From: an uncultured Poribacteria bacterium
Lineage (GTDB): Bacteria; Poribacteria; WGA-4E; WGA-3G
Direction: 5' to 3'
Length of the DNA stretch: 64,000 nucleotides
NCBI GenBank assembly: GCA_951828385.1
Contig: OX639973.1
Span: 2,241,561 to 2,305,560, forward strand
Shown here: positions 44,413 to 64,000 of the stretch, one piece after another
Numbering within the stretch: the first letter of the stretch is position 1
Layout: each line of letters opens with the position of its first letter
Position numbers and translations under genes: made by a program
Notes under the pieces: model-generated
The model's input: only the letters and a program-made list of their open reading frames with translations
Databases searched by the model: none
What the model was told of the DNA's origin: nothing

Positions 44413-46041
44413 TTACTTCCGAATTAACATCTTACGCGTCGCAGTAAACTGCCCAGCTTTGAGCGTATAGAAATAGACTCCACTTGCGACTGGCTCTCCG
44501 TGAGCATTCTTACCATCCCAATAGGCAGCACGGTCTCTACTCTGATAGACACCTGCAGGCATTTCGCCTAACGGCAAACTCCGAACTAAAGCACCGTTCG
44601 CAGTATGAATGAAGACAGCGACTTCCGCTGGTTGCGCCAACTGATAAGGTATCCAAGTCTCTGGATTGAAGGGGTTGGGGTAGTTTGCCAAGAGCACTGT
44701 TTTTGGGGGTGTCGGTCGTGCCATCCGTGTCCCAACTGCCAAAAAGCGTTCTAAGATCGCGATCGTCTGTGGATCCGCACCGACATCCTGTGCCTCTTGG
44801 ATCCACTGCTGGACATCTTCTGCAGTGAAGGAGAAATCGTGTAGATGCTGTGCAAGAATAGGAGCCGCTTGGGAATCTACTGGTGCTTGGGCATCCACTG
44901 CCTTAGCAACAACAATGAGGTCTTCAATATTAACGACCCCATCTTTGTTGACATCCGCGCGTGGGTTTGCGCCATCTACGACAGTTTTTCCGTAGTTCTC
45001 TCCCACCTCAATAATGTCAAGATATGTGACACTACCGTCCCCTGTTATATCAACCGCTGCGAGTGGCTCCCACAAGCGGATTGTGTCGTCATCACTGCCA
45101 CTCACAAGAAGTGACCCATCAGAGTTCCAAGCAATTGTATTAACACTAGCGGTATGCCCTTTCAGAGTGGCTTTGTGTGCGCCAGTGGTGGAGTCCCATA
45201 AGCGGATGGTATCATCGCTACTGCCACTGGCAAGGATTGCCTCGGTTGGATGGAATGCCAACGTATGGACGTTACCGGTATGCCCTTCCAAGACGTGCAG
45301 CGGGGAATCCGTGTCCGTTGGGTCCCAAATACGGATGGTGTCATCGTTGCTTGCACTCGCGAGCAGCGTTCCATCAGGACTCCACGCAACCGATCTAACA
45401 GTATGCGTATGTCCGCGAAGTGTAGCAATGTTGGCACCGTTGTCTGGGTTCCACAAACGGACGGTACGGTCTCTACTTGCACTGGCGAGCAGCGTTCCAT
45501 CAGGACTCCACGCAACCGACTCGACATCATTCCGATGCCCCCGCAGTGTCCGAACGGGTCGACTTTTCCATGCGTCCCATGTTAAATCCCAGATACGGAT
45601 TGTGTCGTCATTGCTCCCGCTGGCAAGGATGGAGCTCCCCGGTTTAAAGGACAGCGTATTGACAGTGTTTGTATGTCCTGTGAGGTAACCTCTTATGTCT
45701 CCGTCATCTGTGTAAGACATCCCAATATAAGGGCGGAAAAAGAGTCCGCCGGCATAAACGACAAAACGCGAGTCATGCGATGAGATCGCAATATCAGAGA
45801 TTAAGAAGAGATCCACTTCGGTATGCCAAGGTTGTGCACCCGTGTCAAGATCCCAAAAGCGAAGGTCGCTATCGCCTCCCACACTGATAAGTGTGCTATC
45901 GTCTTTGAATGCCACTGCAGAGACATGAATTTTATGCCCGCTGAGCGTCCGAGTATGGAAGTACTCTTCGGCAGCGGCAAAAGGTAAAGTAACTGTGAAA
46001 ATGGACAGTAGCGTTAAAATCAAAAGGCTTATTTTTTTCAT
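44413..46041 (-). CDS. Secreted WD40 beta-propeller protein with a dockerin-like repeat and a T9SS-type (Por_Secre_tail/FlgD-Ig-like) C-terminal domain
   Basis: Signal peptide, about 7 WD40 repeats (LRGHTHTVRSVAWSPDGTLLASASNDDTIRIWD etc.), dockerin-like DVNKDGVVNIEDLIVVAKAV, C-terminal NYPNPFNPETWIPYQL...GVYFYTLKAG. Confidence 0.8.
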   Translation of the reverse strand: MKKISLLILTLLSIFTVTLPFAAAEEYFHTRTLSGHKIHVSAVAFKDDSTLISVGGDSDLRFWDLDTGAQPWHTEVDLFLISDIAISSHDSRFVVYAGGLFFRPYIGMSYTDDGDIRGYLTGHTNTVNTLSFKPGSSILASGSNDDTIRIWDLTWDAWKSRPVRTLRGHRNDVESVAWSPDGTLLASASRDRTVRLWNPDNGANIATLRGHTHTVRSVAWSPDGTLLASASNDDTIRIWDPTDTDSPLHVLEGHTGNVHTLAFHPTEAILASGSSDDTIRLWDSTTGAHKATLKGHTASVNTIAWNSDGSLLVSGSDDDTIRLWEPLAAVDITGDGSVTYLDIIEVGENYGKTVVDGANPRADVNKDGVVNIEDLIVVAKAVDAQAPVDSQAAPILAQHLHDFSFTAEDVQQWIQEAQDVGADPQTIAILERFLAVGTRMARPTPPKTVLLANYPNPFNPETWIPYQLAQPAEVAVFIHTANGALVRSLPLGEMPAGVYQSRDRAAYWDGKNAHGEPVASGVYFYTLKAGQFTATRKMLIRK

Positions 46042-46120
46042 CTGAATGCATCCTTTCCCGAAAACACTTTCGGGTGTAGATAATTTATGTTGCCCTAAAT
46101 TGCTCAAACTTTCAGTCGTT

Positions 46121-46179
46121 GTTTAATGATACAATTTGAAGGTCAAAAAGGTGCATAATGGGAAAAAAAATTGAATGAG
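46121..46179 (-). promoter_or_regulatory. Conserved ~55-bp upstream element, copy A (between the ECF-fusion 1 stop and the WD40 gene start)
   Basis: gtttaatgatacaatttgaaggtcaaaaaggtgcataatgggaaaaaaaattgaatgag. Matches copy B 49280-49338 at about 50 of 59 positions. On the coding (minus) strand it carries TGCACC-18-TATCAT. Confidence 0.55.
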
Positions 46180-46220: not shown

Positions 46221-49200
46221 TCAATCGTTTTTCTTCTCAAGCGCGGCATAAAACATCCCGCTCCGTTCGGTAACAATATAAAGCCTGTTACGCTTGACAG
46301 CAACAGAAATGACGCGGCTTGGTACGTTTGGCGAGATCTGTTCCCATCTGCCCCGAGTATCCAATTGATAGGCACCCGTATCGCCAGCACCATAAACGGT
46401 TATATCATCTACGGCAACTCGGGCTATGACGGTGTGTGTACCACCTTTATCGGTGATTGCGCGCCAATTTTCACCGTCTGCCGATGTTAAGACCCCCGCG
46501 TCTGTGGCGACATAAACCGTTGAACCCGCAAAAACAATATCGTTGAAATGTTCAAATCGAAGTGGCAGTGTTGCGGTCAGGTCTTTCCATGTGTTCCCGC
46601 TATCAAACGATCGGAACAGATGTCCATCCCGTTTGCCAACGTAGACGGTTTCACCTGAAACAGCCAGAACGAAATGATCGGGCCCCTCATGGTTAGTAGG
46701 TGCGTCAATGTCTACCAGCCCAGTGTCGAACCATTCAGGTTCGCCGCGTCTCCACCGCAGGAGCCGCCCCTGATATTCCACATAGAACGTATCACCGCTG
46801 ACTGCAAACGCGCTGTGAGATGCTATGGACTCGCGGGTTGTGTCTATCGATTTATCGGCTTTCTCAGGATCGTTAGGGGCAGCGTCGGGTATATTTCTTT
46901 CCGACATCTCTTGTGATGCAGTTTTTGGAGGCTCAATAGAAAGATTTTCACCCAAAACAGGGGCTTCTGGCATAAGCACCAGCACACCGCCATTCTTAGA
47001 AAGATGGAAGATGCGCTGCTCGGTACCTTCTATGTCTACGGAAAGTGCGGTGCCGATGCAGTAGAGTTTATCGTCAGAAATTGCCAGCTGCGAAGAACGG
47101 AGTAGAAGACCGACAGCCAATACCGATCCTAATTCTGGTGTTAATTGATCAGGGCTGAATCGCAGGTCTCTCCATGACATCCCACCGTCGGTGGATTTCG
47201 CGATATTTGTACCGGTATAGGCGTAGAGTGCGTTTTTGAATGCGACTAAGTTAGATATCTGGGTTCCGACCATGCCTGTCATAAACGGATGCCACGATTC
47301 GCCAGCATCGGTTGAACGGATAAGTCCAAAAGGACTGGCTTTGAACAGGATATTTTCGTTCATGCCAATAGCGGGGAATACACTCAGCATAAACGAATTC
47401 ATCATTGAAAGCGGATCCAATTTTTTGTATCCGTGGTTTGTCCATGTTTCGCCGCCGTCAGTCGATCGGCATTGGAAGCCGGTGTATCCCAATGCCCAAA
47501 GCGTTTTTCCAGCAGTAAGGACCTTAATGCCCGGGGATAGCATCGTCAAGACTGGCTCGCTTGTAGGTGTGATTTCAGTCCACGAATCGCCGAAATCGGT
47601 TGACCGGAAAATTTCCCACATAGACTGCCCGGCAGACACCTCTTCGCGTATTTCATCCTCTTTAAAGGCTCCCAAGTCGGGACCTGTCCCGACATAGAGG
47701 TTGCTTTCAGAAACCGCTAAGGAGTGGATAGCCTTAGTGGTCGTTAGCGGCAATTTTTCCCACATATCCATTGCCGAATTATGCCCTGGATTGATACGGT
47801 AGAGTCCCTGATTCGTTCCGATAAACATTGTGTTTTCAAGAGTAGCCAAAGCAAAGATTTTTCTATCCGTCACTTCACCACCGAGGGGTGTCCACTGCTG
47901 TCCCCTATCTTCGGATCGGAAAACACCTTTATCTCTCAGCAGGAGGTATAAGGCTTCATCCGTTACGGCCAATGCGACAGCAATACCTTCGGGGCGGGTG
48001 CCAATCGGCTCCCACATCTCGCCGCTATCGGTTGAGATAAGTACTTTATCATCAGAAATAAGATAAAGGGTTCCGTTTTGCTCCGCCATCGGTATCATGG
48101 GGGGTGCCTCCGTAGGTGTCTCCAAAGTTGTTGTAGGGCTGAGGAACGTCCATGCTCGTGTGTCTGGCGTTAATCTATAGACACCGAGACGCGAAGCGGC
48201 GTAGATATCGCCATTTGAACTTACCAGTAAGCCGCCTACGGGGCCGCTCGCTGGTACGCTCGCGGGTCTCCACTGCTGTGGTGTTGTCAGTGGTTCCTTT
48301 TCTATCTGCGCGACAGCAGGGACAACAGGCTCTGAAACTTGCGGCCCGGCACCGCTGCCCCGACCCGTGGTATCAGAACGTCCGGCTTGGTTCCGTAGGT
48401 CCGGTTCCGCCTGCGTATCAATAACAATGGGTGTGTCAATAATTTCAACAGTGGTTTCCGATTGGGCATTCAAGTTGTAAGGTCTCTGAAAGCGACTCAG
48501 GTATTGGGACCCGACACCGATCATCAGCATTATAAGAATGGTAGCGGTGCCAAAAGCGATCCAGGGTAGCAACGGTTTTCCAACCGAAGGTGGTGCTGGT
48601 TTGATGTCGGCAACTTGCTGCATAATACGCTCAATGAAATTGGCAGGCATCTGGACGTTTCCAAGCGTTTCGCTAATCAGGTGCTCTTCGGCTTGTAAAC
48701 GCTCCCGTGCCCGGCGAAGCCGACTTTTAATGGTGTTCACCGATACCCCTAAGAAATTGCCAATCTCCTTCGCCGTCATTTCACCGAGGTAGTAGAGCGT
48801 TACCACCGTCCGTTCACTCTCTGGCAATGTTTCCAGAAGCTCTTTGACGATTTCGTGGCGATGTTCCATCGCTTCCGCCTCCCGTTGCTCCGATACATAA
48901 CGTCTATAAGAAAATGCCTCTACGTCCGCTACAGATGTGTCATCCAGGGATTGCATCGCGGGTTTGTTGCTTTGATGCCACCTCTTGCAAAGATTACTCG
49001 CAATCACATAAAGCCATCCAGCAAACTGGCTGGGATTCCTCAGCCTTGCAAGGTTTTTGTATGCTTGGAGGAAGGCATCTTGGGCAATCTCTTCAGCGAT
49101 GTGAAAATCGCCAATCTTCCGCCACGCCAGCGCGTGAACGCTTTTTTGGTACTTTTGGACCAAAGCACTAAATGCCGCTTCATCACCCGACAAAATTCTG

Positions 49201-49229
49201 TGAATCAGTTGAACATCGTTTTCCACCAT
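46221..49229 (-). CDS. Membrane-tethered ECF sigma factor fused, via one TM helix, to a large extracytoplasmic BNR-repeat beta-propeller domain (paralog 1)
   Basis: N-terminal ~190 aa has sigma70 regions 2 and 4 (HIAEEIAQDAFLQAYKNL...; LGEMTAKEIGNFLGVSVNTIKSRLRRARERL). TM helix PLLPWIAFGTATILIMLMIGV. At least 8 Sx(D/S)xGxxW BNR motifs in the remaining ~800 aa. Start taken at MVENDVQ (49229) by homology with paralog 2. Confidence 0.8.
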   Translation of the reverse strand: MVENDVQLIHRILSGDEAAFSALVQKYQKSVHALAWRKIGDFHIAEEIAQDAFLQAYKNLARLRNPSQFAGWLYVIASNLCKRWHQSNKPAMQSLDDTSVADVEAFSYRRYVSEQREAEAMEHRHEIVKELLETLPESERTVVTLYYLGEMTAKEIGNFLGVSVNTIKSRLRRARERLQAEEHLISETLGNVQMPANFIERIMQQVADIKPAPPSVGKPLLPWIAFGTATILIMLMIGVGSQYLSRFQRPYNLNAQSETTVEIIDTPIVIDTQAEPDLRNQAGRSDTTGRGSGAGPQVSEPVVPAVAQIEKEPLTTPQQWRPASVPASGPVGGLLVSSNGDIYAASRLGVYRLTPDTRAWTFLSPTTTLETPTEAPPMIPMAEQNGTLYLISDDKVLISTDSGEMWEPIGTRPEGIAVALAVTDEALYLLLRDKGVFRSEDRGQQWTPLGGEVTDRKIFALATLENTMFIGTNQGLYRINPGHNSAMDMWEKLPLTTTKAIHSLAVSESNLYVGTGPDLGAFKEDEIREEVSAGQSMWEIFRSTDFGDSWTEITPTSEPVLTMLSPGIKVLTAGKTLWALGYTGFQCRSTDGGETWTNHGYKKLDPLSMMNSFMLSVFPAIGMNENILFKASPFGLIRSTDAGESWHPFMTGMVGTQISNLVAFKNALYAYTGTNIAKSTDGGMSWRDLRFSPDQLTPELGSVLAVGLLLRSSQLAISDDKLYCIGTALSVDIEGTEQRIFHLSKNGGVLVLMPEAPVLGENLSIEPPKTASQEMSERNIPDAAPNDPEKADKSIDTTRESIASHSAFAVSGDTFYVEYQGRLLRWRRGEPEWFDTGLVDIDAPTNHEGPDHFVLAVSGETVYVGKRDGHLFRSFDSGNTWKDLTATLPLRFEHFNDIVFAGSTVYVATDAGVLTSADGENWRAITDKGGTHTVIARVAVDDITVYGAGDTGAYQLDTRGRWEQISPNVPSRVISVAVKRNRLYIVTERSGMFYAALEKKND

Positions 49230-49279
49230 CAGCATTCTCCATGTCTCACGCATAAACGTGATTGTGTTTACATTCAAAT

Positions 49280-49338
49280 TGTTAATGATACAATTTTAAG
49301 GCGGAAAGGGTGCATGATTTGAAAAAAAATTGATACCC
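49280..49338 (-). promoter_or_regulatory. Conserved ~55-bp upstream element, copy B (about 55-110 nt upstream of the ECF-fusion 1 start)
   Basis: tgttaatgatacaattttaaggcggaaagggtgcatgatttgaaaaaaaattgataccc. See copies A and C. Confidence 0.55.
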
Positions 49339-49380: not shown

Positions 49381-49575
49381 CAACACCGCAAAACCGCACC
49401 TACCGGACCTGGGAACTGAGACGGGATTCAAGAGGGTTTTGAAGTCCTCAAGGTTTCCGCGTAGTATCCGGTTCGGTTAGGAATGCAGGTCGCATTTGGG
49501 CGTGTACGCCGCGATGCACGTCGCATCTGGGCGTGTACGCCGCAAAAACCGAACCTACCGGGCCTGGGTCTGAAA
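49381..49575. repeat. Complex intergenic repeat region. Direct copies of CAAAACCGCACCTACCGGRCCTGGG flank a 2x direct repeat GTCGCATYTGGGCGTGTACGCCGC.
   Basis: 49389-49413 and 49545-49570 carry the flanking motif. The inner repeats are at about 49485 and about 49517. A further inverted copy of the flanking motif lies at 20643-20665. Confidence 0.6.
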
Positions 49576-50697: not shown

Positions 50698-51121
50698 CTA
50701 AAAGTTTGTGGTACGAATGTGTCTATTTATTTTAGGATTCACTATAACATATTTTTTCAGTTGTCCCCACGTCACTGCCAGTTTACCTTGGGGTTGAACC
50801 GATAAATTGCCGTGGTTCGGCACCTCTTCGCCCACAAAAAGAGAGTGTTCTGAACTAAAGGCAATCCATTGGCTGTCCGGAGACCAAGCCGGTCTTTTGC
50901 AGCCCCCTCGGTTCGTCAGCCGCTTCACATTTCCGCCATCTGCGTCTATTCTGTAGATGTCCATCTCCCCGTTGCGTTCGGCGATGAATGCGATCCACTT
51001 CCCATTCGGAGACCAAGCGGGCCATATATCTCTACTCTCGTGGAACGTCAACTGACGTTCTACATTTGTTCTCACGTCCCTCACATAAAAATAGAATTGT
51101 TACAATGATTAGAAATTTCAT
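50698..51121 (-). CDS. Exported PD40/TolB-like repeat protein (paralog a), frameshifted at a T5 run between the lipoprotein-type signal peptide and the PD40 domain. C-terminal ...VTWGQLKK tail.
   Basis: The ORF-track part 50698-51084 starts at GTG. Upstream in another frame, SD GGAGG + ATG 51119-51121 encodes MKFLIIVTILFLCEG... (lipobox-like). Deleting one T of tatttttat restores a continuous ORF. PD40 motifs WPAWSPNGKWIAF and PAWSPDSQWIAF. Confidence 0.6.
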
Positions 51122-53218: not shown

Positions 53219-55248
53219 CTATTCAAACGCATTCGCTACAATCACCAAGTCCTGTATATTGACAACGCCATCACCATTTATATCCGGTGCCGTTTCCCCA
53301 AACGCATTTGCGACGATGACCAAATCCTGGATATTCACGACACCATCACCATTAACATCCGCAGTGGGAGGCGTTTCCGACTTCAAATAGATTTCGCCAT
53401 CCAAATCTGCCAACGTATGCTGGCGTTGATTCTCTACACCGCTTGCCCAGCCGGAGACCTCCTGCGGAAGTTCTATCTCCTGTTCCTTACCAGAGCGATT
53501 ATACACCGCCCAACCATTGGTGAATTCCCGGATAAACAACCCCTCTCGGTTCTCATAAAGCTGCGCTTTCGTTTCATTGCCACCCACCGGACGACCGAGG
53601 TCGGCGTTCCAGAAATCGTACCAGTAAAACTCATCATAATGGAACGTATAAACCGATGCATTGGAATGCGTGAGTGCCATTGTCGTGAAAAACCTGTTGC
53701 GTTGCTTTGCTTCGGGACCGTCGATCGGTTTGAAAGGTGACAACTCACCTTCTAAAAGATTTAATGTTGGTTTCCTCAGCTTCGTTCATTCCACAAAAGC
53801 GCATCTTCTATGTCACGGATCCCAGACAAGGTATAGCCCTCAGGTTCACCCGGGTGAAAGTCATAAAGATCACGTCCTGTTTCCATGTAGATACCGTTGA
53901 CATAGGGTGCCCAACGGCGCTGCAGTTTACGGCGGTTGTTGTTAACGAGTATAAAAAAGTCATCGGGGACAACTTCGCGAATGCGTCGGAGGATTGTGTC
54001 CATCGCAATAGATTCTTCTTCTGCGGTATAGATTCCCTGTAGCCTCTTTTTTCCTTCGCCCCAATGGTCAAAAAAGATACCATCATAGAGTCCACACTCG
54101 CTAATCGCTTTTGCCTGTTGCACAATTTGTTCTATGACAGCAGGTTTCGTGAAGTCAATAAGATGATCTATTAGTTCTTCCATGGCATGCCTGCGCCAAA
54201 CTGATGTTAGACGGTTTCCTTCTTTATCGCGTAGCCAACCGTCCCAATCTTCGCCATAAAAATCGGGGTGCCCGCTCTCAAAATACAGCCCTACAAGCAA
54301 AATCATATTAGGATTTCGGCGAAGGACTTCGGTGTGTGTTTCTATCATTTTATCCATCTGTCCTGTCCGTAAGGTTGCGTTTATACCCTCAGGAGACAGC
54401 CATATTGTTCTCACATCATTTCCGAGTGGGCCAAAAGGGTGCACTCCAAAAATAAAGTCAAACACCGTGAAAATTTCTATAGTGTGTTGATCGTGCTCCG
54501 CAAGCGTGTGGGATTTTACCCAATTAGAAGGAAAGTTTCTGTTTTGAATGCGTTCTGCCAAAGGGAGTTTGTACGAAAAATCGTCAAATAAAGATAAACA
54601 CCATCTCTCAAATGAGTTTTTTATTGCTCCTGCGAAATGCTTGATCTGGGAAAAATCCTCAATAGGGTTGTCTATTATTTCCAAAACTTTGAGTTTGGTT
54701 AGACCGGTTATTGCGGATAGGTCTGAAACCTGATTCTCGCGCAATAGCAATACTTCTAAATTTATCAGTCCCGCCAGGGGTGTTAGGTCTGAAATCTGAT
54801 TCTCGCTCAATTGCAATTCTTTTAAATTTATCAGTCCAGTGAGGGGTGTTAGGTCTGAAATCTGGGTGTCATAAAATTCGAGCGTGTGTAGTTTGACCAG
54901 TCCAGCGAGGGGCGTTAGGTCTGAAATGTTACATCGATTGATACTTAGAAACTTCAAATTAACGGCGTGTTGGAGACCTTCAAGGTTCTCAATTTCATCA
55001 CGTTCGCTTATAAGCGTGTGTAATCGTTGCATGTCCGCGATTGTTAGGCTTTCCACGTCCAACGCTTCTGATACAATTCTCCGTAGGTGTGGATCCGGCA
55101 TCCAGTCTTGGACATCTTCTGCATGGACGGAAGCATTATAGACAAGTATGCCCACAATCGACGCGAGGAACAACTGAAACCAAAATGATTTACGATATAT
55201 TTCTTTCATTGTCATAAGATAATCTATAATCTCCTTTTCAAAACGCAT
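53219..55248 (-). pseudogene. Disrupted paralog of the LRR-hydrolase-dockerin gene (two ORF fragments, 53776-55248 and 53219-53743, separated by a frameshift)
   Basis: Fragment 1 ends ...ALLWNERS*. The -1 frame then continues as KLRKPTLNLLEGELSPFKPIDG..., colinear with ...TLLWSEKNFREPQINALEGWGLESEPLDSP... of the intact paralog 55238-57268. A single nucleotide near 53787-53790 restores the frame. Confidence 0.65.
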
Positions 55249-57229
55249 TCGCTACAATCACTAAATCCTGTATATTCACAACGCCATCACCATTCAGATC
55301 AGGTGCCGCTTCCCCAAACGCATTCGCCACAATAACTAAATCCAGTACATTCACCGTGCCATCACCATTGACATCCGCAGTAGGAGGCGTTTCCGACTTC
55401 AAATAGATTTCGCCATCCAAATCTGCCAACGTATGCCGGCGTTGATGCTCCACACCGCTCGACCAGCCAGAGACCGTTTCCGCAAATTCAATCTGTTGTT
55501 CGGAGCCGGACCGATTATACACTGCCCAGCCGTTAGTAAACTCCCGGATAAACAACCCCTCGCGATCCTCATAAAACTGCCCTTTAGTTTCATCACCACC
55601 CACCGGCCGACCGAGGGGTGCCTCGTAGAAGCGGTACCAGTAATGTTGATGTTGGTGGTCATGGGATGTTCCGATGGCGTGTTCTTCTGAATGTCCTGCA
55701 TAGAGTTCATAAGCGTGCGTGTGTACGGGACCGTTAATCCCTGTTACATACTGGACGTAACCGTCGGAATGCGTCAAATTCAGCGTTGTGAAAACACGCA
55801 TCCACTGCCGGTTTTTAGGACTGTCAAGCGGTTCGCTCTCAAGTCCCCATCCCTCAAGGGCATTTATTTGTGGTTCTCGGAAGTTCTTCTCTGACCAGAG
55901 TAACGTGTTTTCAATTTCGCGCAGTCCTGCGTATGTGTAACCACTTTTGTAATCCCGTACGGTTTCCATAAATGTTCCATTCACATAGGAAGCCCATCTT
56001 GGAATTTTACCTCGATTCGTATTTACCATTATCAGAAAGTTATCACCCACTGCCTTGCGAATTCCCTTGAGAATTCTGTCTCGTGCAGTGTGTTCTTCCT
56101 CTAAAGTCTTGGAAGCTTCGAGTCTTGGCTGTTCATTCCAGTGATCGAGAAATATACCGTCATATAACCCGCATTTTGAAACTTCAATTGCCTGTTGGAC
56201 GAACATATCTTGGATTTCAGGATGTGTATAATCAATGAGATATACACCGTTATTCCCGTCCTCCACCCTCTTACCTGATGTGTCTCGCAACCAGTACTCC
56301 CAATCTTCAGGATACTCATTTGGATGTCCATAGTAGTAACGGATGACAGCAAGAAATATCATATTGGGGTTTTGAGAAAGCAGCGCGTTTCTTGTTGACT
56401 TTGCGCGTTCTATATCTCCAATTAGTTTCCAACCGTTGGACGTAGATTCCCATTGAGTACCAAAGTAATCCGGGTAAGAAAAATATAGATGGTGGTATGT
56501 GAGTAGTTCGCTCCATGTTCCTGGCAAGTTGATAATGTTATGCCATGCTGCAAATACCCGCGGTGTGTTTATGTTCTTCAACCTAACTTCGACAGAATCT
56601 CGAGGTAAAGCACATATATTGTGGGATGTGAGATTCAATGCAATCAATTCTGTAACATCTGCGCTGTTTCCATAAGTCTGCACATTTTGAAGTCTTGGGA
56701 GTTTCAAAATCGGTGTAAAATCTTCTATCTGATTTTCTTGCAACTTCAATTCTTCCAGGTTTATTAACCCTGCGAGCGGGGCAATATCCGAGATGTGATT
56801 CTTAGACAACTTTAAGACCCGTAAGTTCTCAAGCCCCACAAGCGGTGTCAAATCCGACACTTCACTTTTAACAATAGCCAAGAATTCTAAGTTCTCAAGC
56901 CCCGCAAGTGGTGCTAAATCTGAGACTTCACTTCTGTCGATAACCAAGACTCTAAGATTCACGGCATACTCAAGTCCTCTTAAACTCCTAATCTCGTGTT
57001 CTATTTCTATTAAGATAAGATTATGTAATCCTGTCATGTCTCCAGGATGTATAGGTATCTCATCAGGGATGCCGAGTTCTTCACGGACAGCCTGCCGAAG
57101 GTTTGGATCGGGCATCCAATCCTCGGCATCTTCTGCATAGGTAAAAGCATTATAGACAAGTATGCTCACAACAGACGCGAGGAGCAACTGAAACCACAAG
57201 GATTTACGATATATTTTTTTCATTGGCAT
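55238..57229 (-). CDS. Secreted protein with N-terminal leucine-rich repeats (internalin-like), a central hydrolase-like domain and two C-terminal dockerin repeats
   Basis: Signal/TM segment KSLWFQLLLASVVSILVYNAFTYA. LRRs (VSDLAPLAGLENLEFLAIVKSEVSDLTPLVGLENLRVLKLSKNHISDIAPLAGLINLEEL). Motif GLYDGIFLDHWNE. Dockerins DVNGDGTVNVLDLVIVANAF and DLNGDGVVNIQDLVIVANAF. Start codon uncertain (M14 or M16). Confidence 0.7.
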   Translation of the reverse strand: MPMKKIYRKSLWFQLLLASVVSILVYNAFTYAEDAEDWMPDPNLRQAVREELGIPDEIPIHPGDMTGLHNLILIEIEHEIRSLRGLEYAVNLRVLVIDRSEVSDLAPLAGLENLEFLAIVKSEVSDLTPLVGLENLRVLKLSKNHISDIAPLAGLINLEELKLQENQIEDFTPILKLPRLQNVQTYGNSADVTELIALNLTSHNICALPRDSVEVRLKNINTPRVFAAWHNIINLPGTWSELLTYHHLYFSYPDYFGTQWESTSNGWKLIGDIERAKSTRNALLSQNPNMIFLAVIRYYYGHPNEYPEDWEYWLRDTSGKRVEDGNNGVYLIDYTHPEIQDMFVQQAIEVSKCGLYDGIFLDHWNEQPRLEASKTLEEEHTARDRILKGIRKAVGDNFLIMVNTNRGKIPRWASYVNGTFMETVRDYKSGYTYAGLREIENTLLWSEKNFREPQINALEGWGLESEPLDSPKNRQWMRVFTTLNLTHSDGYVQYVTGINGPVHTHAYELYAGHSEEHAIGTSHDHQHQHYWYRFYEAPLGRPVGGDETKGQFYEDREGLFIREFTNGWAVYNRSGSEQQIEFAETVSGWSSGVEHQRRHTLADLDGEIYLKSETPPTADVNGDGTVNVLDLVIVANAFGEAAPDLNGDGVVNIQDLVIVANAF

Positions 57230-57379
57230 AGGTATAACTAAAGTTTGGACAATCGATTTGTGTATCAAGTAGCGTTTTCAAGGGGCTTGGTATTTTTCTG
57301 TGAGTTCTGTACCCAGGCAAACGCGGAAAAAACTATAACAGGTTAGTTACACAAGAGACACAGCCTAACAGGAGACCAT

Positions 57380-57574
57380 GCTACACAAGAGACACAAACT
57401 GGAAGTTTATGCTACACAAGAGACACAAACTGGAAGTTTATGCTACACAAGAGACACAAACTGAAAGTTTATGCTACACAAGAGACACAAACTGGAAGTT
57501 TATGCTACACAAGACACAACTGGAAGTTTATGCTACACAAGAGACACAAACTGAAAGTTTATGCTACACAAGAG
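57380..57574. repeat. Intergenic 31-bp tandem direct repeat, about 6.3 copies (gctacacaagagacacaaactggaagtttat)
   Basis: Units at 57380, 57411, 57442 (G>A variant), 57473, 57504 (28-bp short copy), 57532, and a partial seventh. Degenerate partial copies lie at 57341-57379. No unique spacers. Confidence 0.9.
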
Positions 57575-57663: not shown

Positions 57664-60603
57664 CTATTTACGAGATAAGTTGTCTCCCGCTTCCGCAAGC
57701 GGAATCTGAAACATCCCGTTGTGTCTGGTAACAATATAAAGTGTGTCGTTTTTAACAGCGAGTGAGAGGACTTTATCTGGCACGCTTGGAAAAATCTGTT
57801 CCGATTGTCTACGGTCCTCTAAACGATAGACACCGGCATCACCAGCCCCATAAATTGTGGTACCATCAACAGCAAATCTGTCTATAACGATACGCTCGCC
57901 CGCGGTATCGGTCAGGACACGCCAATATGCGCCGGTTTGTGAAGCTAAAATACCTCTGTCCGTTGCGACGTAAGCCGTTGAATCGACAAAAACGATCTCC
58001 TTGAAATGGGTAAAACGTAGGGGCAGGCTGGGGGTAATGTCGCGCCAACTGTCGCCGCCATCAAGCGACTGAAAGAGCCTACCGTCTCGCTTACCGACGT
58101 AGACGGTTTCCGCTGAGACCGCCAATTTGAACCCATTTTTCGAGCCGTCATCAGCCCGTTTCCCGGTATCTATTAATCCGGTATTTTTCCATTCAGGATC
58201 ACTCGGTTTCCAATTAAAGAGTTTCCGCTTGTATTCCACGTAGAAAGTATCACCACTGATTGCAAACGCACCGGCTCTCTCATAGTTTTCACGAAAGGAC
58301 AAATCCCTCATCAATTTACGGTCCTTTTCAGGATCACCAGAAAAGGACATTCCCTGTGCTACCGCAATCTCCTTTAGCACCGCAGGAGACAGATTTCTCT
58401 TACCAAAATCGGGTACGCCTTGAACAGGGATAAACGTATTATCACCAGATAAATGGAAGATACGGAGGTTGTCTCGCCCAGACTCAATAGCATAAAGAAC
58501 GTCGTCAACAATCACAAATTTTGAATCAGTATCGAAGTCGGTGTTAGGAGATTCTCTTTTTGAGGGTTCAGATGCTTGTTCGGCGTAATCAACTGGAACA
58601 GGTGTCCAAGATTCGCCGTCATCAGCAGATTGAACCATATTGCCGTTAGCATGTACATAGAGGCTATTATTGAATACCACCAGATCTCGTGCTCCGGTGC
58701 CGACCATGCCGTCCATAAAATGATGCCACGATTCACCCGCGTCGGTTGTGCGATAGAGACCGGAGTTTCCGGTCTTGTAGAAGGTATTTTTATCGAATGC
58801 TAAATAGGCATAGGTATTTGAGACAGTGCCAAGATTTGTCCAAGTTATCCCGTCATCTTTTGAACAAAATAGCCTGAGACCGCGTGCTAAAATTGTTTCG
58901 CCTCTAACAGCCATTGCCATAGCAGATGCTGCTATAAGGGGATATTTTTTGTCTGTAGGCGTTATCTCGGTCCACGACGTTCCGAGATCGTTTGATTTGA
59001 AAATTCTGCCTGCCCGTGACAGATCAAGTCGCATGTGATCCTCAACTTTGCGACCTGTTCCGACATAGAGAGTATCTTCAAAGGCCACCAAGTCGTGTAC
59101 GGCTCTGGTTGTATCTACCGGTAACTGTTCCCAAACATCGGCGTTGAGGCGGTAGAGGCCTCTGTCTGTGCCAGTGAATACCGTCTCTTTAATCGCAGCG
59201 AGTTTGTAAATTTCTCTACCCGTTAATCCCGTGTTCACGGGTGTCCAGTGTTTTCCAGCATCGGTGGATCGGAAAACGCCTCTCTTCCAAAGGGCGAGAT
59301 ACATCGTAACATTCGCGGGTGCGTTGCGTCCATCTGCTGCATCTACCACGATGAGTTCAGCAGGGTGTCCTTCTGGCCGGTGCCCTAATGTATTCCACGT
59401 CTCGCCATCATCGGTTGAAGCTAATAGTTCATTGCCAGCGATGATATAGAGGGTGCTTGCATGCTCTGCTATAGGCACTCGCGGCATTTCGTTTGGAATA
59501 TTGACGTTTACGGGTGTCCAGAGAGTTGCATCTGCTGTTAACCTGTAGATGCCTATTGACGAATTAACGTAGAGTGTTTTGTTAGATGTCTCAAAGATGT
59601 CAAACACGAATCCGCCTGGCGGTCCGCCCATCTGTGTCCACGGCGCAGTCGAAAATGTAGCGGAGAAATCCGCCGTTGTTGTGGTTACGACAGCCGCCTC
59701 AGCAGTCTGTAAGCCGGTCCCGATGTTTTTGGTGGCGGTCGTCGTGCGTCCGACCTGATTTCGGACAGCTGGTTTGGAAAGCAGATGGAGCATGATAGGT
59801 GCGTCAACGATTTCAACCGTCGGTTCAGATTGTGCTTCAAAACTGTATGGCTGCTGGAAGCGCGCGAGATACTGATGATGCGTACCGAGCATCAAAACTA
59901 TCAAAAGCACAGCCGCGCCAAAAGCCGCCCACGGTAGCAACGGTTTCGCGACCTGCGGCGGTGTCAGTTTCAGATCGGCGACGTGCCGCATGATGTGCTC
60001 TGTTAGGTGAGTGGGTAATTGGAAATTCCCAAGCATCTCACGAATTAAGGATTCTTCGTTCCGCGCCTGTAAACGCTTCCGCGCCCGTTGAAGCCGACTC
60101 TTGATTGTGTTCGCGGATACGCCTAAGAAGTTGCCAATTTCTTTGGCAGTCATCTCGCCGAGATAGTGGAGCGTTACGACGGTACGTTCACTTTCGGGTA
60201 GTTTTTTCAGGAGTTCCTTAACGATTTCGTAGCGGCGTTCCGCGGCTTCCGTTTCTCGTTGCTCTAATACATAATGTTTATAAGAAGATTTTTCTACTTC
60301 TGTGCGAGATATTTTTTCCAGTGATAGCATTGGCGGTTTTTTATTTTTGAACCACCGAATGCACATCCGATTCGTAATTACATATAACCACCCTGCAAAT
60401 TGGTTGGGGTTTTGGAGTGTCGTGAGTTTTTTGTGGACTTGGAGGAAGGTATCTTGTGTAATCTCTTCAGCGATATGAAAATCGCCAACTTTCCGCCACG
60501 CGAGTGCGTGGACACCCTTTTGGTATTTTCGGACTAAAGCAGTGAACGCCGCCTCATCACCTGCTAAGGTTCTCTGGATTAATTGAACATCATTTTCTAC
60601 CAT
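57664..60603 (-). CDS. Membrane-tethered ECF sigma factor fused to a BNR-repeat beta-propeller extracytoplasmic domain (paralog 2)
   Basis: N-terminus MVENDVQLIQRTLAGDEAAFTALVRKYQKGVHALAWRKVGDFHIAEEITQDTFLQ... is highly similar to paralog 1. TM PLLPWAAFGAAVLLIVLMLG. BNR motifs STDDGETW, STDAGKHW, SNDLGTSW, SKDDGITW, TTDAGESW, SADDGESW, SLDGGDSW. Its SD AAAAAGGAG lies inside the upstream PD40b tail. Confidence 0.8.
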   Translation of the reverse strand: MVENDVQLIQRTLAGDEAAFTALVRKYQKGVHALAWRKVGDFHIAEEITQDTFLQVHKKLTTLQNPNQFAGWLYVITNRMCIRWFKNKKPPMLSLEKISRTEVEKSSYKHYVLEQRETEAAERRYEIVKELLKKLPESERTVVTLHYLGEMTAKEIGNFLGVSANTIKSRLQRARKRLQARNEESLIREMLGNFQLPTHLTEHIMRHVADLKLTPPQVAKPLLPWAAFGAAVLLIVLMLGTHHQYLARFQQPYSFEAQSEPTVEIVDAPIMLHLLSKPAVRNQVGRTTTATKNIGTGLQTAEAAVVTTTTADFSATFSTAPWTQMGGPPGGFVFDIFETSNKTLYVNSSIGIYRLTADATLWTPVNVNIPNEMPRVPIAEHASTLYIIAGNELLASTDDGETWNTLGHRPEGHPAELIVVDAADGRNAPANVTMYLALWKRGVFRSTDAGKHWTPVNTGLTGREIYKLAAIKETVFTGTDRGLYRLNADVWEQLPVDTTRAVHDLVAFEDTLYVGTGRKVEDHMRLDLSRAGRIFKSNDLGTSWTEITPTDKKYPLIAASAMAMAVRGETILARGLRLFCSKDDGITWTNLGTVSNTYAYLAFDKNTFYKTGNSGLYRTTDAGESWHHFMDGMVGTGARDLVVFNNSLYVHANGNMVQSADDGESWTPVPVDYAEQASEPSKRESPNTDFDTDSKFVIVDDVLYAIESGRDNLRIFHLSGDNTFIPVQGVPDFGKRNLSPAVLKEIAVAQGMSFSGDPEKDRKLMRDLSFRENYERAGAFAISGDTFYVEYKRKLFNWKPSDPEWKNTGLIDTGKRADDGSKNGFKLAVSAETVYVGKRDGRLFQSLDGGDSWRDITPSLPLRFTHFKEIVFVDSTAYVATDRGILASQTGAYWRVLTDTAGERIVIDRFAVDGTTIYGAGDAGVYRLEDRRQSEQIFPSVPDKVLSLAVKNDTLYIVTRHNGMFQIPLAEAGDNLSRK

Positions 60604-61211
60604 CCGGATTCTCCTTTTTCAGTTGTCCCCAGGTCGTCGATAGCAACGCCGGCTGCGGCGAGACCGGCAACGCATACGCTGGATTAAACCAATCCGCGTT
60701 GGCGTTATCACCCCGGCGCGTGAGTTGTTCTGGAACACCGTCGTCCGAAGCGATTTTGAAGAGTTGTCTGAAACCACGAACCCGTTTATCGTAAATGAGT
60801 TCATTCCCGTGCGGTGCCCAGGCAGGATTAGACGCGAAGTTGCCGCCTCCATCTGCAATCTTCCGGAGTCCGCTACCATCTTGGTTCACAACATAGACCC
60901 CCATAGTGTGTCCTATCTCTTGCCTACCTGTCCAAAAAAAGGCTATCTGCGCGCTATTGGGTGCCCAAGCTGGGTCAAACATCCCAATCTTCCCCGGAAG
61001 AATTTTCTCTTCTACATGCGTTTGTAGATTAATAATCTCGACCCTGACGTTCGGTGCTTGGAGATTTCCGTTTTCAGCCCAAACGAACTTGGCTGCCATA
61101 AAGGCTATCTCAGAACCGTTAGGAGACCACGCATGCTTTGGCAAAAAGTGGACGCATCATTCCACACATCAGCATCCAGAAGATGATAGAAAAAACCAAC
61201 TTCAATCTCAT
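60590..61211 (-). CDS. Exported PD40/TolB-like repeat protein (paralog b), frameshifted at a T5 run after the signal peptide. C-terminal ...STTWGQLKK tail. Its 3' end overlaps the ECF-fusion 2 start by 14 nt.
   Basis: The ORF-track part 60590-61144 starts at TTG. Upstream, GGAGGAATCGGT-ATG (61209-61211) encodes MRLKLVFSIIFWMLMCGMMRPLFAKAC... in the +1 frame. Removing one T of ctttttgcc fuses the two. PD40 motifs AWSPNGSEIAF, PAWAPNSAQIAF, PAWAPHGNELIY. Confidence 0.6.
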
Positions 61212-61292
61212 ACCGATTCCTCCGATTCGTAATTTTAGGACCAATGATTCAAAGCCGTCATTCTGTCGCGCGTGTCGGCATGGCACTATTAT

Positions 61293-61352
61293 CCAATTAT
61301 TAAAGAGACTATTTTTAAGGGCAAAGGGTGCATAATTTGAAAAAGTGGATAG
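61293..61352 (-). promoter_or_regulatory. Conserved ~55-bp upstream element, copy C (about 80-140 nt upstream of the PD40b signal-peptide ATG)
   Basis: ccaattattaaagagactatttttaagggcaaagggtgcataatttgaaaaagtggatag. Shares the core TTTTAAGG-N4-AAAGGGTGCATNATTTGAAAAA with copies A and B. Confidence 0.5.
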
Positions 61353-62880: not shown

Positions 62881-64000
62881 TCAAACGGTGTCTACCGGGT
62901 CTGGGGATTCTAATGCCGGTAGGTTGTCGATAATATCCACCGTCTTCACGCTGACAGTGATGACTTTGCCGATTAACTTGACGATATACTGCGGGTCATC
63001 GGTGCGGTTTGGGTCGTTGACGATGCCGCTCCGTTTGTCCGTTTTGACACGATATTGGTCGATTACCCACTCCAGCGCGGAACGGGTGCCGAGCCGGTAG
63101 TCGAAGACTTTTGGCGGTATCCCATCAAGCGTCAAGAATTTATTGTAGACAATCTGTGTTTTGTCTTTCGAGAGTTTCATCTTCTCAACGCGCCAATCGA
63201 GCGGCACCTCCGGGGTCTGGATGAACTTGAGTTTATCGTATTCGGGTTGCGATTCGTAGGTGACGTGGAGATCCGCTAACCTCGCGCCTGCCTTTGCAAA
63301 CCCCCAGAAGTTTTTAGCGAGAGGGATATGCGGTAGATCGCGTTTGAGGTTCGCTTCGTATTTTTCGCGATACTCCGGGTGATGCAAGAGTCCGTAGTTA
63401 TAGTGGAAGATGTCCCACTTGCTGATGGTGTCGTCCGCGTAATGCGTGCGGAATTGCGTCAATGCCCAATCGGTGATGTTCTCGCGGCGATTTGTGCCGT
63501 CTTCGTCGTAGGTGTAGAAGGGAAAGCATTGGGCACTGCAACCTGGACCCACAACATGGAGGTCGGTGAGTTGGTCGCTCATAAGAACCATGAAAGGTTT
63601 TTCAGACCCCTTATCCGTCAGGCAAATCACTCGATTTTCCGTCTCTGTCTCTGAAATCGGAAAAATAAAAGGAAATACAAGCACTCTATCATTCATCATT
63701 CGATCAAAATAGAGGTTAGATTTCGTAAAGGGACGATAAAGAGATTGCCGGATTTTTGCCTCTGTAAATGCCTCCACCTGACCATTTCGCAGTTTTTGCT
63801 TTAAAGTTGAACTCCACTTAATTTTTGTCCCATCAGAAATTACGTAATCATCAAGGTTATCACTCCGATCCGTCCGTTGTCCCCATCGTGCAACTTCCGC
63901 ATTGTAATTTTCAATCATTCTCCTTATGTTTTCAGTTAGCGTGCTTCGGTTGAAGTTGCAAACCCATGCATCGCGATTGGTTTTCACACCGTTGCTGTAG
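62881..64000 (-). CDS. C-terminal (target-recognition/coupler-like) region of a large restriction-modification-type enzyme (type IIG/ISP or BREX PglX-like). Partial: the N-terminal part lies beyond the window end.
   Basis: The frame stays open to the window edge. Motifs recalled from MmeI/type-ISP/PglX-like methyltransferase C-termini: LYRPFTKSNLYFD, CFPFYTY, LPHIPL, FWGFAKAGARLADLHVTYE, LDGIPPKVFDYRLGTRSALEWVIDQY. Assignment is from memory, not from a search. Confidence 0.35.
   Translation of the reverse strand, partial: YSNGVKTNRDAWVCNFNRSTLTENIRRMIENYNAEVARWGQRTDRSDNLDDYVISDGTKIKWSSTLKQKLRNGQVEAFTEAKIRQSLYRPFTKSNLYFDRMMNDRVLVFPFIFPISETETENRVICLTDKGSEKPFMVLMSDQLTDLHVVGPGCSAQCFPFYTYDEDGTNRRENITDWALTQFRTHYADDTISKWDIFHYNYGLLHHPEYREKYEANLKRDLPHIPLAKNFWGFAKAGARLADLHVTYESQPEYDKLKFIQTPEVPLDWRVEKMKLSKDKTQIVYNKFLTLDGIPPKVFDYRLGTRSALEWVIDQYRVKTDKRSGIVNDPNRTDDPQYIVKLIGKVITVSVKTVDIIDNLPALESPDPVDTV

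Follow-up and report, generated by a model that had tools for sequence, protein, structure and literature searches.

Introduction

Control of extracytoplasmic function (ECF) sigma factors normally falls to a separate anti-sigma protein. Transmembrane ECF sigma factors made as one polypeptide are rare, and to our knowledge only IutY has been dissected. Here we describe a gene of this architecture in a 64,000-nt stretch of a Poribacteria sponge-symbiont genome (assembly GCA_951828385.1, contig OX639973.1, positions 2,241,561 to 2,305,560; hereafter the window). The gene (57664..60603, minus strand) is intact, starts with ATG and encodes a 979-residue fusion of an ECF sigma factor, a transmembrane (TM) helix and an extracytoplasmic BNR/Asp-box domain. 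It is the second of two such fusions in the window (paralog 2) and follows the remnant of a PD40-propeller gene. We propose that the fusion is a one-polypeptide transmembrane signalling sigma factor that would be released by regulated proteolysis, a model to which we assign a probability of roughly 0.6.

IutY of Pseudomonas putida, a sigma/anti-sigma hybrid of the ECF243 type, is cut by Prc and then by RseP (PMC5411451, PMC8999054), and its periplasmic part is trimmed to about 50 residues before the RseP cut (PMC5411451). Like IutY, the Poribacteria fusion carries an N-terminal cytoplasmic ECF sigma factor, a single TM helix and a C-terminal part in the periplasm on one polypeptide. IutY, however, has a FecR-type anti-sigma domain and is signalled via a TonB-dependent outer-membrane receptor, whereas the periplasmic part of the fusion is a propeller domain of ~650 residues that could bind a signal directly. 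Proteolytic release has also been proposed for the ECF52 protein SCO4117 (PMC8999054, PMC5826349). The actinobacterial ECF52, ECF48 and ECF53 sigma factors likewise combine an ECF sigma, a TM segment and an extracytoplasmic domain, theirs with a Pro/Thr-rich linker and carbohydrate-binding domains (PMC5826349, PMC8999054). Those proteins have, ahead of the membrane, an anti-sigma domain of the zinc-finger (ZAS-like) type, whereas none was found in the Poribacteria fusion, which belongs to another phylum, has a different and far larger ectodomain and shares its N-terminal part (hereafter the chassis) with proteins bearing many other ectodomains.

Lineage-specific ECF expansions with variable extensions are known in Planctomycetes (PMC7671368, PMC7826278). 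The planctomycete ECF57 group, with WD40-like repeats, resembles the present family by architecture, in that duplicates carry unrelated C-terminal extensions (PMC8999054, PMC7671368). For ECF57 proteins, which have two conserved cysteines, regulation through protein interaction or a change of conformation has been discussed (PMC8999054), whereas the constant elements of the Poribacteria chassis include a TM helix and a conserved juxtamembrane motif. An ECF sigma factor with a transmembrane sensory C-terminal extension is thus already known in kind; new here are a chassis lacking an anti-sigma domain, a GH74-like double-propeller ectodomain and optional PD40 cassettes. Our literature search returned no description of the sigma-TM chassis family and none joining an ECF sigma factor to BNR repeats. 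Among the titles and abstracts listed for Poribacteria and sigma factors, none looked relevant, and the ECF classification paper says nothing of Poribacteria in its main text.

An ECF sigma factor and a membrane helix on one polypeptide

Orthologs of the fusion, 975-984 residues long and 63-96% identical, occur in many Candidatus Poribacteria assemblies. Compared with the ortholog at locus L001, the whole gene has a ratio of nonsynonymous to synonymous substitution rates (dN/dS) of 0.30, which indicates purifying selection. The reading frame cannot start further upstream because an in-frame TGA lies 18 nt before the ATG. A later start is contradicted by the invariance of D5, Q7, L8 and I9 (stretch 5-9) across 28 family members, by alignments to the ECF hidden Markov model and to the SigW structure sequence that both begin at residues 7-9, and by the position of the next Met at residue 80. 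An artefactual start choice, which would have made the overlap with the upstream reading frame spurious, is thereby ruled out.

The cytoplasmic sigma module (aa 1-185; 60049..60603) comprises sigma-2 and sigma-4. Pfam matched Sigma70_r2 at residues 23-89, Sigma70_r4_2 at 126-178 and Sigma70_ECF at 7-181, and the NCBIfam ECF superfamily model TIGR02937 scored 94.6 bits against a cut-off of 42.9; the fusion protein gave no match to region 3 or region 1.1. The module aligns over its full length with the SigW, sigma-E and sigma-H structures, and residues 9-181 of the family profile cover the entire SigW structure sequence (5wuq 9-183, E 1.4e-27). It can be assigned from these alignments to the ECF (group IV) branch of the sigma-70 family. 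It is also the most conserved part of the protein, with 97% identity and a dN/dS of 0.17 relative to L001.

The predicted TM helix, PLLPWAAFGAAVLLIVLMLG (aa 220-242; 59878..59946), is the sole strongly hydrophobic 19-residue window of the fusion (Kyte-Doolittle 2.33), and residues P221, P224, W225 and G240 are invariant among the family members aligned. An AlphaFold model places a helix at 228-239 with an all-beta domain after it. Sigma domain, TM helix and extracytoplasmic C-terminal part are thus arranged as in sigma/anti-sigma hybrids. Only ~35 residues separate sigma-4 from the membrane. No Pfam family matched residues 176-327 at E <= 10, and neither FecR N-terminal nor zinc-finger/ZAS anti-sigma domains were detected in this linker, including by a Pfam scan of the whole protein.

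On the periplasmic side, the helix is followed by a conserved juxtamembrane segment (aa 243-285; 59749..59877) with the ~45-residue motif QYLxRFQxPYSFEAxSEPTxEIxDxP...KPAVRNQxG, in which L246, Q250, P252, Y253, A257 and E264 are invariant in the same alignment. A low-complexity Thr/Ala-rich stalk connects this segment to the ectodomain.

A predicted GH74-like double-propeller ectodomain

The ectodomain (aa 321-979; 57667..59643) contains seven strict Asp-box motifs, defined as S/T-x-D/N-x-G-x-x-W, at residues 396, 446, 537, 581, 619, 659 and 846. Pfam matches in this region were BNR, Sortilin-Vps10 and DUF6242. An AlphaFold model built from a 28-sequence alignment shows a confident all-beta domain, with predicted local distance difference test (pLDDT) values of ~75-92 across most of aa 321-970. 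When this model was compared with the Protein Data Bank using Foldseek, the top 22 matches were GH74 structures, with TM-scores (target) of 0.54-0.59. The best, the GH74 xyloglucanase 2cn3_A, gave E 3e-24 and a TM-score of 0.58 at only ~15% sequence identity. Profile matches to the same GH74 chains were weak, and alignments of the ectodomain sequence to GH74 are driven by the repeats and too unreliable for reading off the catalytic Asp pair of the cleft. In the model, the ectodomain fits the hallmark of GH74, two tandem seven-bladed beta-propellers forming a cleft. The likeness to GH74 xyloglucanases lies in tandem propellers with Asp-box motifs, whereas the output of the fusion would be a sigma factor rather than glycosidase activity.

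Foldseek matches with lower TM-scores included double-propeller sensors from the hybrid two-component systems (HTCS) of Bacteroides. BT4663 and BT4673 also use double propellers as glycan sensors wired to transcription, although the match is weak (TM-score ~0.3) and the output here is a fused sigma factor instead of a kinase/response-regulator module. Genes downstream of the fusion encode LRR (leucine-rich repeat)-GHL15-dockerin and GHL10/DUF6259-dockerin proteins, and orthologous loci additionally carry 3-keto-disaccharide hydrolase-like genes. From the fold and the neighbouring glycoside hydrolase-like and dockerin genes, a glycan is a reasonable candidate for the signal.

The same fold could mean that the ectodomain is chiefly an anchored GH74-type glycosidase or a structural surface protein, with a degenerate sigma module, or that the gene is decaying like its neighbours. 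The nearest folds are indeed enzymes, NCBIfam reports a sub-threshold match to a BNR glycosylhydrolase family, several neighbours are remnant or split (two PD40 genes, PD40a and PD40b, and a GHL15 gene), and the ortholog at L011 is disrupted. We nevertheless consider this explanation very improbable, as the gene is intact and full length and its sigma module is the best conserved part of the protein (also 73% identical to paralog 1), matches full-length ECF models and structures, and is retained in front of unrelated ectodomains.

A chassis family with exchangeable ectodomains

The first fusion in the window, paralog 1 (46221..49229, minus strand), is 1002 residues long counted from MVENDV and has the N-terminus MVENDVQLIHRIL. 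The sequence-only reading had described paralog 2 as a diverged duplicate of this gene, nearly colinear and mostly identical over the N-terminal ~230 residues, with a sensor domain that had diverged but kept at least seven BNR motifs. BLASTP bears out homology over the whole length of both proteins (48% identity, colinear throughout), and the N-terminal ~230 residues are 70.6% identical with 2 gap columns. By region, identity is 73% in the sigma module, 65% in the TM helix, 56% in the juxtamembrane segment, 20% in the stalk and 45.5% in the ectodomain. Exactly seven strict motifs occur in each paralog, at equivalent positions. Duplication followed by diversification holds solely as an ancient process within a very large gene family. 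A recent event was rejected, since 45 clusters among the top 120 matches (50-55% identical) are closer to paralog 2 than paralog 1 is. None of these 120 matches was an ortholog of paralog 1, all being <= 50.5% identical to it; one such ortholog, with the same 5' region, was found in another metagenome (L019).

A HMMER search of 1.84 billion cluster representatives returned 513 clusters at E <= 1e-30, of which the best 150 (50%-identity representatives) were sorted by local BLAST. Forty-four of the 150 matched both the sigma module and the BNR sensor. In 74 others, the match covered only residues ~1-300 (50-66% identical) of proteins 450-1283 residues long, and all 74 included the TM and juxtamembrane segments. 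The remaining clusters matched the ectodomain only (22), the chassis only in proteins of <450 residues that may be fragments or truncated (7), or fell into neither pattern (3). Nine of the 74 chassis proteins with a non-BNR C-terminus were covered by a Pfam scan, which identified LRR (P0178, P0189), WD40 propeller (P0197, P0210, P0227, P0235), LamG (P0240), GHL15 (P0177) and Peptidase_M16_C (P0170) ectodomains.

By these comparisons, the conserved unit is the chassis (~aa 1-290, comprising sigma module, linker, TM helix and the ~45-residue periplasmic motif), and the ectodomain is exchangeable. Because the juxtamembrane segment is kept across swapped ectodomains, it is better assigned to the transduction machinery than to ligand binding. 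With at least 118 of these 50%-identity clusters among the top 150 matches carrying the chassis, it defines a large uncharacterised family, one that is likely restricted to Poribacteria.

A shared promoter-like motif upstream of the sigma fusions

The motif ATGCACC(C/T)TTT-N8-AAAWW-GT(C/A)TC-(T/A)TTAA occurs three times in the window, always on the minus strand, with 0.00 occurrences expected. One copy (61305..61333, ATGCACC-N17-GTCTC) lies 93 nt before the original PD40 start upstream of paralog 2, and a second (49287..49315, ATGCACC-N17-GTATC) lies directly upstream of paralog 1. The third (46128..46156) precedes a gene encoding a WD40 protein with a type IX secretion tail (Por_Secre_tail; 44413..46107, minus strand), which is a candidate regulon member. 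TGCACC and GTMTC, 17 nt apart, never vary, unlike the AT-rich flanks, for which reason we read the motif as a putative ECF-type -35/-10 pair. ECF sigma genes typically have an ECF-type promoter of their own, with 16-17 nt between -35 and -10, and usually regulate themselves. Across 11 independent related loci, it is always located 5' of the first PD40 gene of the operon or of the sigma gene. On metagenome contigs, the motif precedes the paralog-1 ortholog, another sigma fusion, a PD40 gene, an FtsX-like permease gene and a gene for a secreted protein of 246 residues that is TTWxNLK-tagged and ends in KLATTWANLKQF. Positive autoregulation and a small regulon via TGCACC-N17-GTMTC are supported, though not proven, by this pattern. 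Generic sigma-70 promoter and terminator scans gave counts at the level of shuffled sequence.

Motif and PD40 start are separated by a 93-nt leader (61212..61304) that orthologs conserve better than the PD40 coding sequence itself, and three relatives carry insertions at one point within it. Behind motif and leader, the fusion gene comes as the last cistron; relatives have one to three PD40 genes in between, the final one overlapping the sigma start by 14 nt. A structured RNA in the leader was rejected, as the consensus energy was -1.8 kcal/mol and no Rfam family matched at E <= 1. Upstream of the paralog-1 promoter, the intergenic region 49383-49570 contains a 30-nt direct repeat in two copies (49483-49543) and a 24-nt repeat at 49390 and 49545.

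A model for signal-dependent release of the sigma module

In the model that we favour, the sigma module would reside in the cytoplasm and be kept inactive at the membrane. On sensing of a signal, probably a glycan, by the ectodomain, the periplasmic part would be trimmed, and intramembrane cleavage of the Pro/Gly-containing helix would then free the sigma module. Once freed, it would direct transcription from TGCACC-N17-GTMTC promoters, both its own, giving positive autoregulation, and those of secreted-protein genes. PD40 would be an accessory and dispensable periplasmic partner, co-transcribed with the fusion and probably translationally coupled to it where intact. Helix-destabilising Pro and Gly residues in a TM segment are typical of site-2 protease substrates. 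The proteolytic scheme fits the fusion because its TM helix has invariant Pro and Gly residues and is followed by a conserved ~45-residue periplasmic stub and then a low-complexity stalk. Taken by itself, the proteolytic step stands at about even odds.

The main rival to proteolytic release is a tethered mode of action, as in ToxR or CadC, in which a ligand would shift the conformation or oligomeric state of the protein and RNA polymerase would be recruited at the membrane by an uncleaved sigma factor. With no anti-sigma domain between sigma-4 and the membrane, nothing obvious keeps the sigma module inactive, and the conserved juxtamembrane segment might serve in dimerisation or transmission and not as a protease site. 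However, ~35 residues between sigma-4 and the membrane would probably leave little room for a holoenzyme of ~400 kDa, and the invariant Pro and Gly residues of the helix match a site-2 protease substrate. IutY, the only characterised single-polypeptide transmembrane sigma factor, is also released by proteolysis (PMC5411451). We therefore regard tethered action as unlikely.

Several observations weigh against proteolytic release or leave parts of the model less secure. No protease gene is linked to the locus. That the tethered sigma module is inactive is an assumption, given that no anti-sigma domain was detected in the linker, and the AlphaFold model is poor for the sigma module and linker (pLDDT <50 at aa 27-115 and 192-316). 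The putative promoter is assigned from conservation and position only. Finally, the PD40 remnant upstream of the fusion, with a dN/dS of 0.42, may still be translated and relevant.

The PD40/sigma junction

The sequence-only reading had also placed the sigma start 14 nt inside the upstream PD40 gene (PD40b), with a ribosome-binding site encoded by the PD40 tail, and had argued from this for obligate co-expression. The layout itself is as described. The sigma ATG (60603-60601) and the upstream TGA (60592-60590) delimit a 14-nt overlap, ATGGTAGAAAATGA (60590..60603, minus strand), in which the TGA is created by sigma codons Asn4-Asp5 (AAT GAT). A Shine-Dalgarno (SD) sequence, AAGGAG (60611..60616), lies 7 nt before the ATG within the LKKEN codons of the tail QLKKENPDGRK, and orthologs conserve it as A(A/T/C)GGAG. 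The overlap is conserved at 10 independent orthologous loci with an intact PD40 gene. The two frames thus form a conserved overlapping pair on the same strand, with the second start inside the first frame and its SD in coding sequence. Sigma codons 2-11 show a synonymous variation of 0.043, compared with 0.186 on average across the gene, in the lowest 1.8% of 10-codon windows, as expected from dual coding and an initiation region.

In relatives with tandem PD40 arrays, each copy ends in TTWGxLK(K/L)E(K/N) followed by a stop, and its GGAG serves the cistron 2-8 nt downstream. Because this cistron may be whichever follows, including the next PD40 gene, the tail SD is a generic feature of PD40 cassettes and did not arise as an adaptation to sigma translation. 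Where PD40 meets the sigma gene, read-through into the latter takes the place of the customary PD40 stop. An SD-masking RNA structure at the junction was rejected, with no compensatory pair in the consensus fold and a single-sequence z of -1.0. A 10-bp long-range pairing between the ADWFD codons and the QLI codons is not claimed, as both arms are invariant and hence uninformative.

PD40, a frequent but apparently dispensable partner

The PD40b gene upstream of the fusion is broken in the window. Its original start and signal peptide survive in an orphan 30-codon open reading frame (ORF; 61119..61211, minus strand), MRLKLVFSIIFWMLMCGMMRPLFAKACVVS followed by a stop, and the rest of the gene is a 184-codon remnant in a different frame (60590..61144, minus strand) that corresponds to the intact protein from residue ~154 to ~338. 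Compared with copy 3 of L006, which is the closest intact allele and 92.8% identical in nucleotide sequence along the remainder, a deletion of ~365 nt that is not a multiple of three separates the two parts. A tblastn search with the intact PD40 protein of L002 matched the window from residue 154 onward only. The remnant scores 20.4 bits against the Pfam PD40 cut-off of 20.9 and, without the first ~153 residues including the signal peptide, does not constitute a full PD40 propeller. The identical deletion junction recurs in the independent assembly L001 (sigma protein 92% identical), so an assembly error was rejected as the cause of the frameshift.

Intact PD40 genes at orthologous loci encode proteins of 336-345 residues with a signal peptide (MRLK...LFAKAP) and PD40/Tricorn_N propeller matches. 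They match the TolB propeller region at 145.6 bits, below the equivalog cut-off of 343, and are PD40 propellers rather than TolB. Between zero and three PD40 copies occur per locus. With identities of the sigma fusion to that of the window in brackets, one copy is found at L014/15 (96%), L002/3 (84%), L005 (83%), L013 (83%) and L009 (72%), two at L011 (80%), two in tandem at L016 (90%) and L017 (88%), and three at L006 (79%); all of these loci share the ATGGTAGAAAATGA overlap. At L004/L010 (77% ortholog, complete chromosome), the gene is reduced to a 24-codon mini-ORF, MRLKSIFSIITWGQLKMENPDGRK and a stop, that runs in frame between the start and the overlapping stop of the original gene and ends in the 14-nt overlap. 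There is no PD40 gene at the L008 locus.

These loci bear on the strongest form of the earlier claim, that translational coupling binds PD40 and the sigma-sensor into an obligate pair in which the exported PD40 protein is a co-sensor required in fixed proportion. The conserved overlap with its internal SD, the low synonymous variation at the start of the sigma gene and the retention at L004/L010 of an in-frame 24-codon ORF up to the overlapping stop are all in its favour, as is the remnant frame, which is open in both the window and L001 with a dN/dS of 0.42 between them. Against it, PD40 is broken in the window and L001, nearly gone at L004/L010 and absent from L008 while the sigma gene remains intact; copy number varies; a tail SD of this kind belongs to PD40 cassettes in general; the sigma start is served by a strong consensus SD of its own, ideally spaced; the junction shows neither a stable fold nor a covarying pair; and neither paralog 1 nor its L019 ortholog has a PD40 gene immediately upstream. 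We consider an obligate pair improbable.

In the window itself, obligate co-expression with an exported PD40 protein fails, as the out-of-frame deletion detaches the signal peptide from the remainder. An ATG lies ~20 nt past the stop of the orphan ORF, and reinitiation there is possible; the remnant, even if translated, cannot give an exported PD40 protein. What survives of the coupling claim is that PD40 and the sigma gene are probably co-transcribed and, where PD40 is intact, probably coupled translationally. Because PD40 is broken, minimal or absent at some loci while the sigma gene is intact, it appears to be a frequent yet dispensable partner of the fusion.

Further observations on PD40 and sigma genes were made at these loci. 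A +1 slip of tRNA-Leu from CUU to UUU at CCA CUU UUU GCC (61119-61150, minus strand) would rejoin the signal-peptide and remnant frames; such a slip at CUU_U in the orphan ORF is speculative and remote, and no stimulatory element for it was found. At L011 (4001-8039), the sigma-BNR frame stops at codon 179, as counted on the raw ORF, and the sensor-coding part is interrupted by ~1 kb, so that this gene is probably inactivated. A second PD40 remnant (PD40a; 128 codons, two PD40 repeats; 50698-51084, minus strand) lies upstream of a LamG gene and paralog 1, and its TWGQLKK tail is followed by 18 additional codons, compared with 4 before the end in L001. Paralog 1 has an in-frame 7-codon extension ahead of MVEND (49229-49253, minus strand; MRETWRML / MREIWRML) that is conserved in L019. 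The DNA of this extension resembles the PD40 tail and SD region minus ~15 nt, and it may be a relic of an earlier PD40-sigma junction.

Other features of the neighbourhood

A C-terminal tag, approximately [VL]-x-P-x-x-x-L-x-T-T-W-G-x-[LIVM]-K followed by 2-8 residues, occurs in the window at 60634, 49717 and 50772 (minus strand), at L001-L013 and at L021; at 50772, in the PD40a remnant, 18 residues come after it. It closes unrelated secreted proteins (PD40, LamG and 3-keto-disaccharide-hydrolase-like), and all 27 occurrences of its core in ORFs of >80 codons are C-terminal. The tag looks like an undescribed Poribacteria sorting or recognition signal.

A 31-nt tandem repeat, ATGCTACACAAGAGACACAAACTGGAAGTTT, occupies 57378-57574 in the gap that separates the sigma-BNR stop codon from the LRR-GHL15-dockerin gene, with 6.5 copies and 94% matches; L001 has a single copy and the other loci compared have none. 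Further along, the minus-strand ORFs 53776..55248 (490 aa, LRR) and 53219..53743 (174 aa, C-terminal part of GHL15 plus dockerin) appear to be parts of a single gene broken by a frameshift or stop, of which 55238..57268 would be the intact paralog. At the other end of the locus, a gene for a Type ISP restriction-modification enzyme runs past the window end, with its C-terminal specificity domain encoded at 62881-63987 (minus strand; E 8e-104); the same gene flanks the locus in L001 and L017.

Implications for regulation in Poribacteria

For annotation, the locus carries a lesson, in that the partner gene is a remnant and co-expression inferred from the overlap alone would mislead. The wider chassis family is more interesting than the paralog pair with which the analysis began. 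It offers a natural setting in which to study the direct coupling of sensors to sigma factors, and it might yield transmembrane regulators that are modular and orthogonal.

The LRR, WD40 and glycan-related domain repertoire of Poribacteria is well known, and the chassis family ties these domains to gene regulation, beyond secreted effectors. We tentatively suggest, as a possibility we rate well below the release model itself, that Poribacteria built a large modular class of one-polypeptide transmembrane sigma factors in which one chassis is combined with interchangeable ectodomains sensing different signals. The ectodomain types (GH74-like double propellers, LRR, WD40, LamG and GHL15 among them) are the same 'eukaryote-like' and glycan-related domains that fill the Poribacteria secretome. 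Each variant may respond to its own glycan or protein, from the host or from food, and each may drive its own operon together with TTWGxLK-tagged or dockerin secreted proteins through the shared promoter type. If this is true, the class would be the sponge-symbiont counterpart of the regulators of Bacteroides polysaccharide utilization loci, with PD40 propellers as optional co-receptors.

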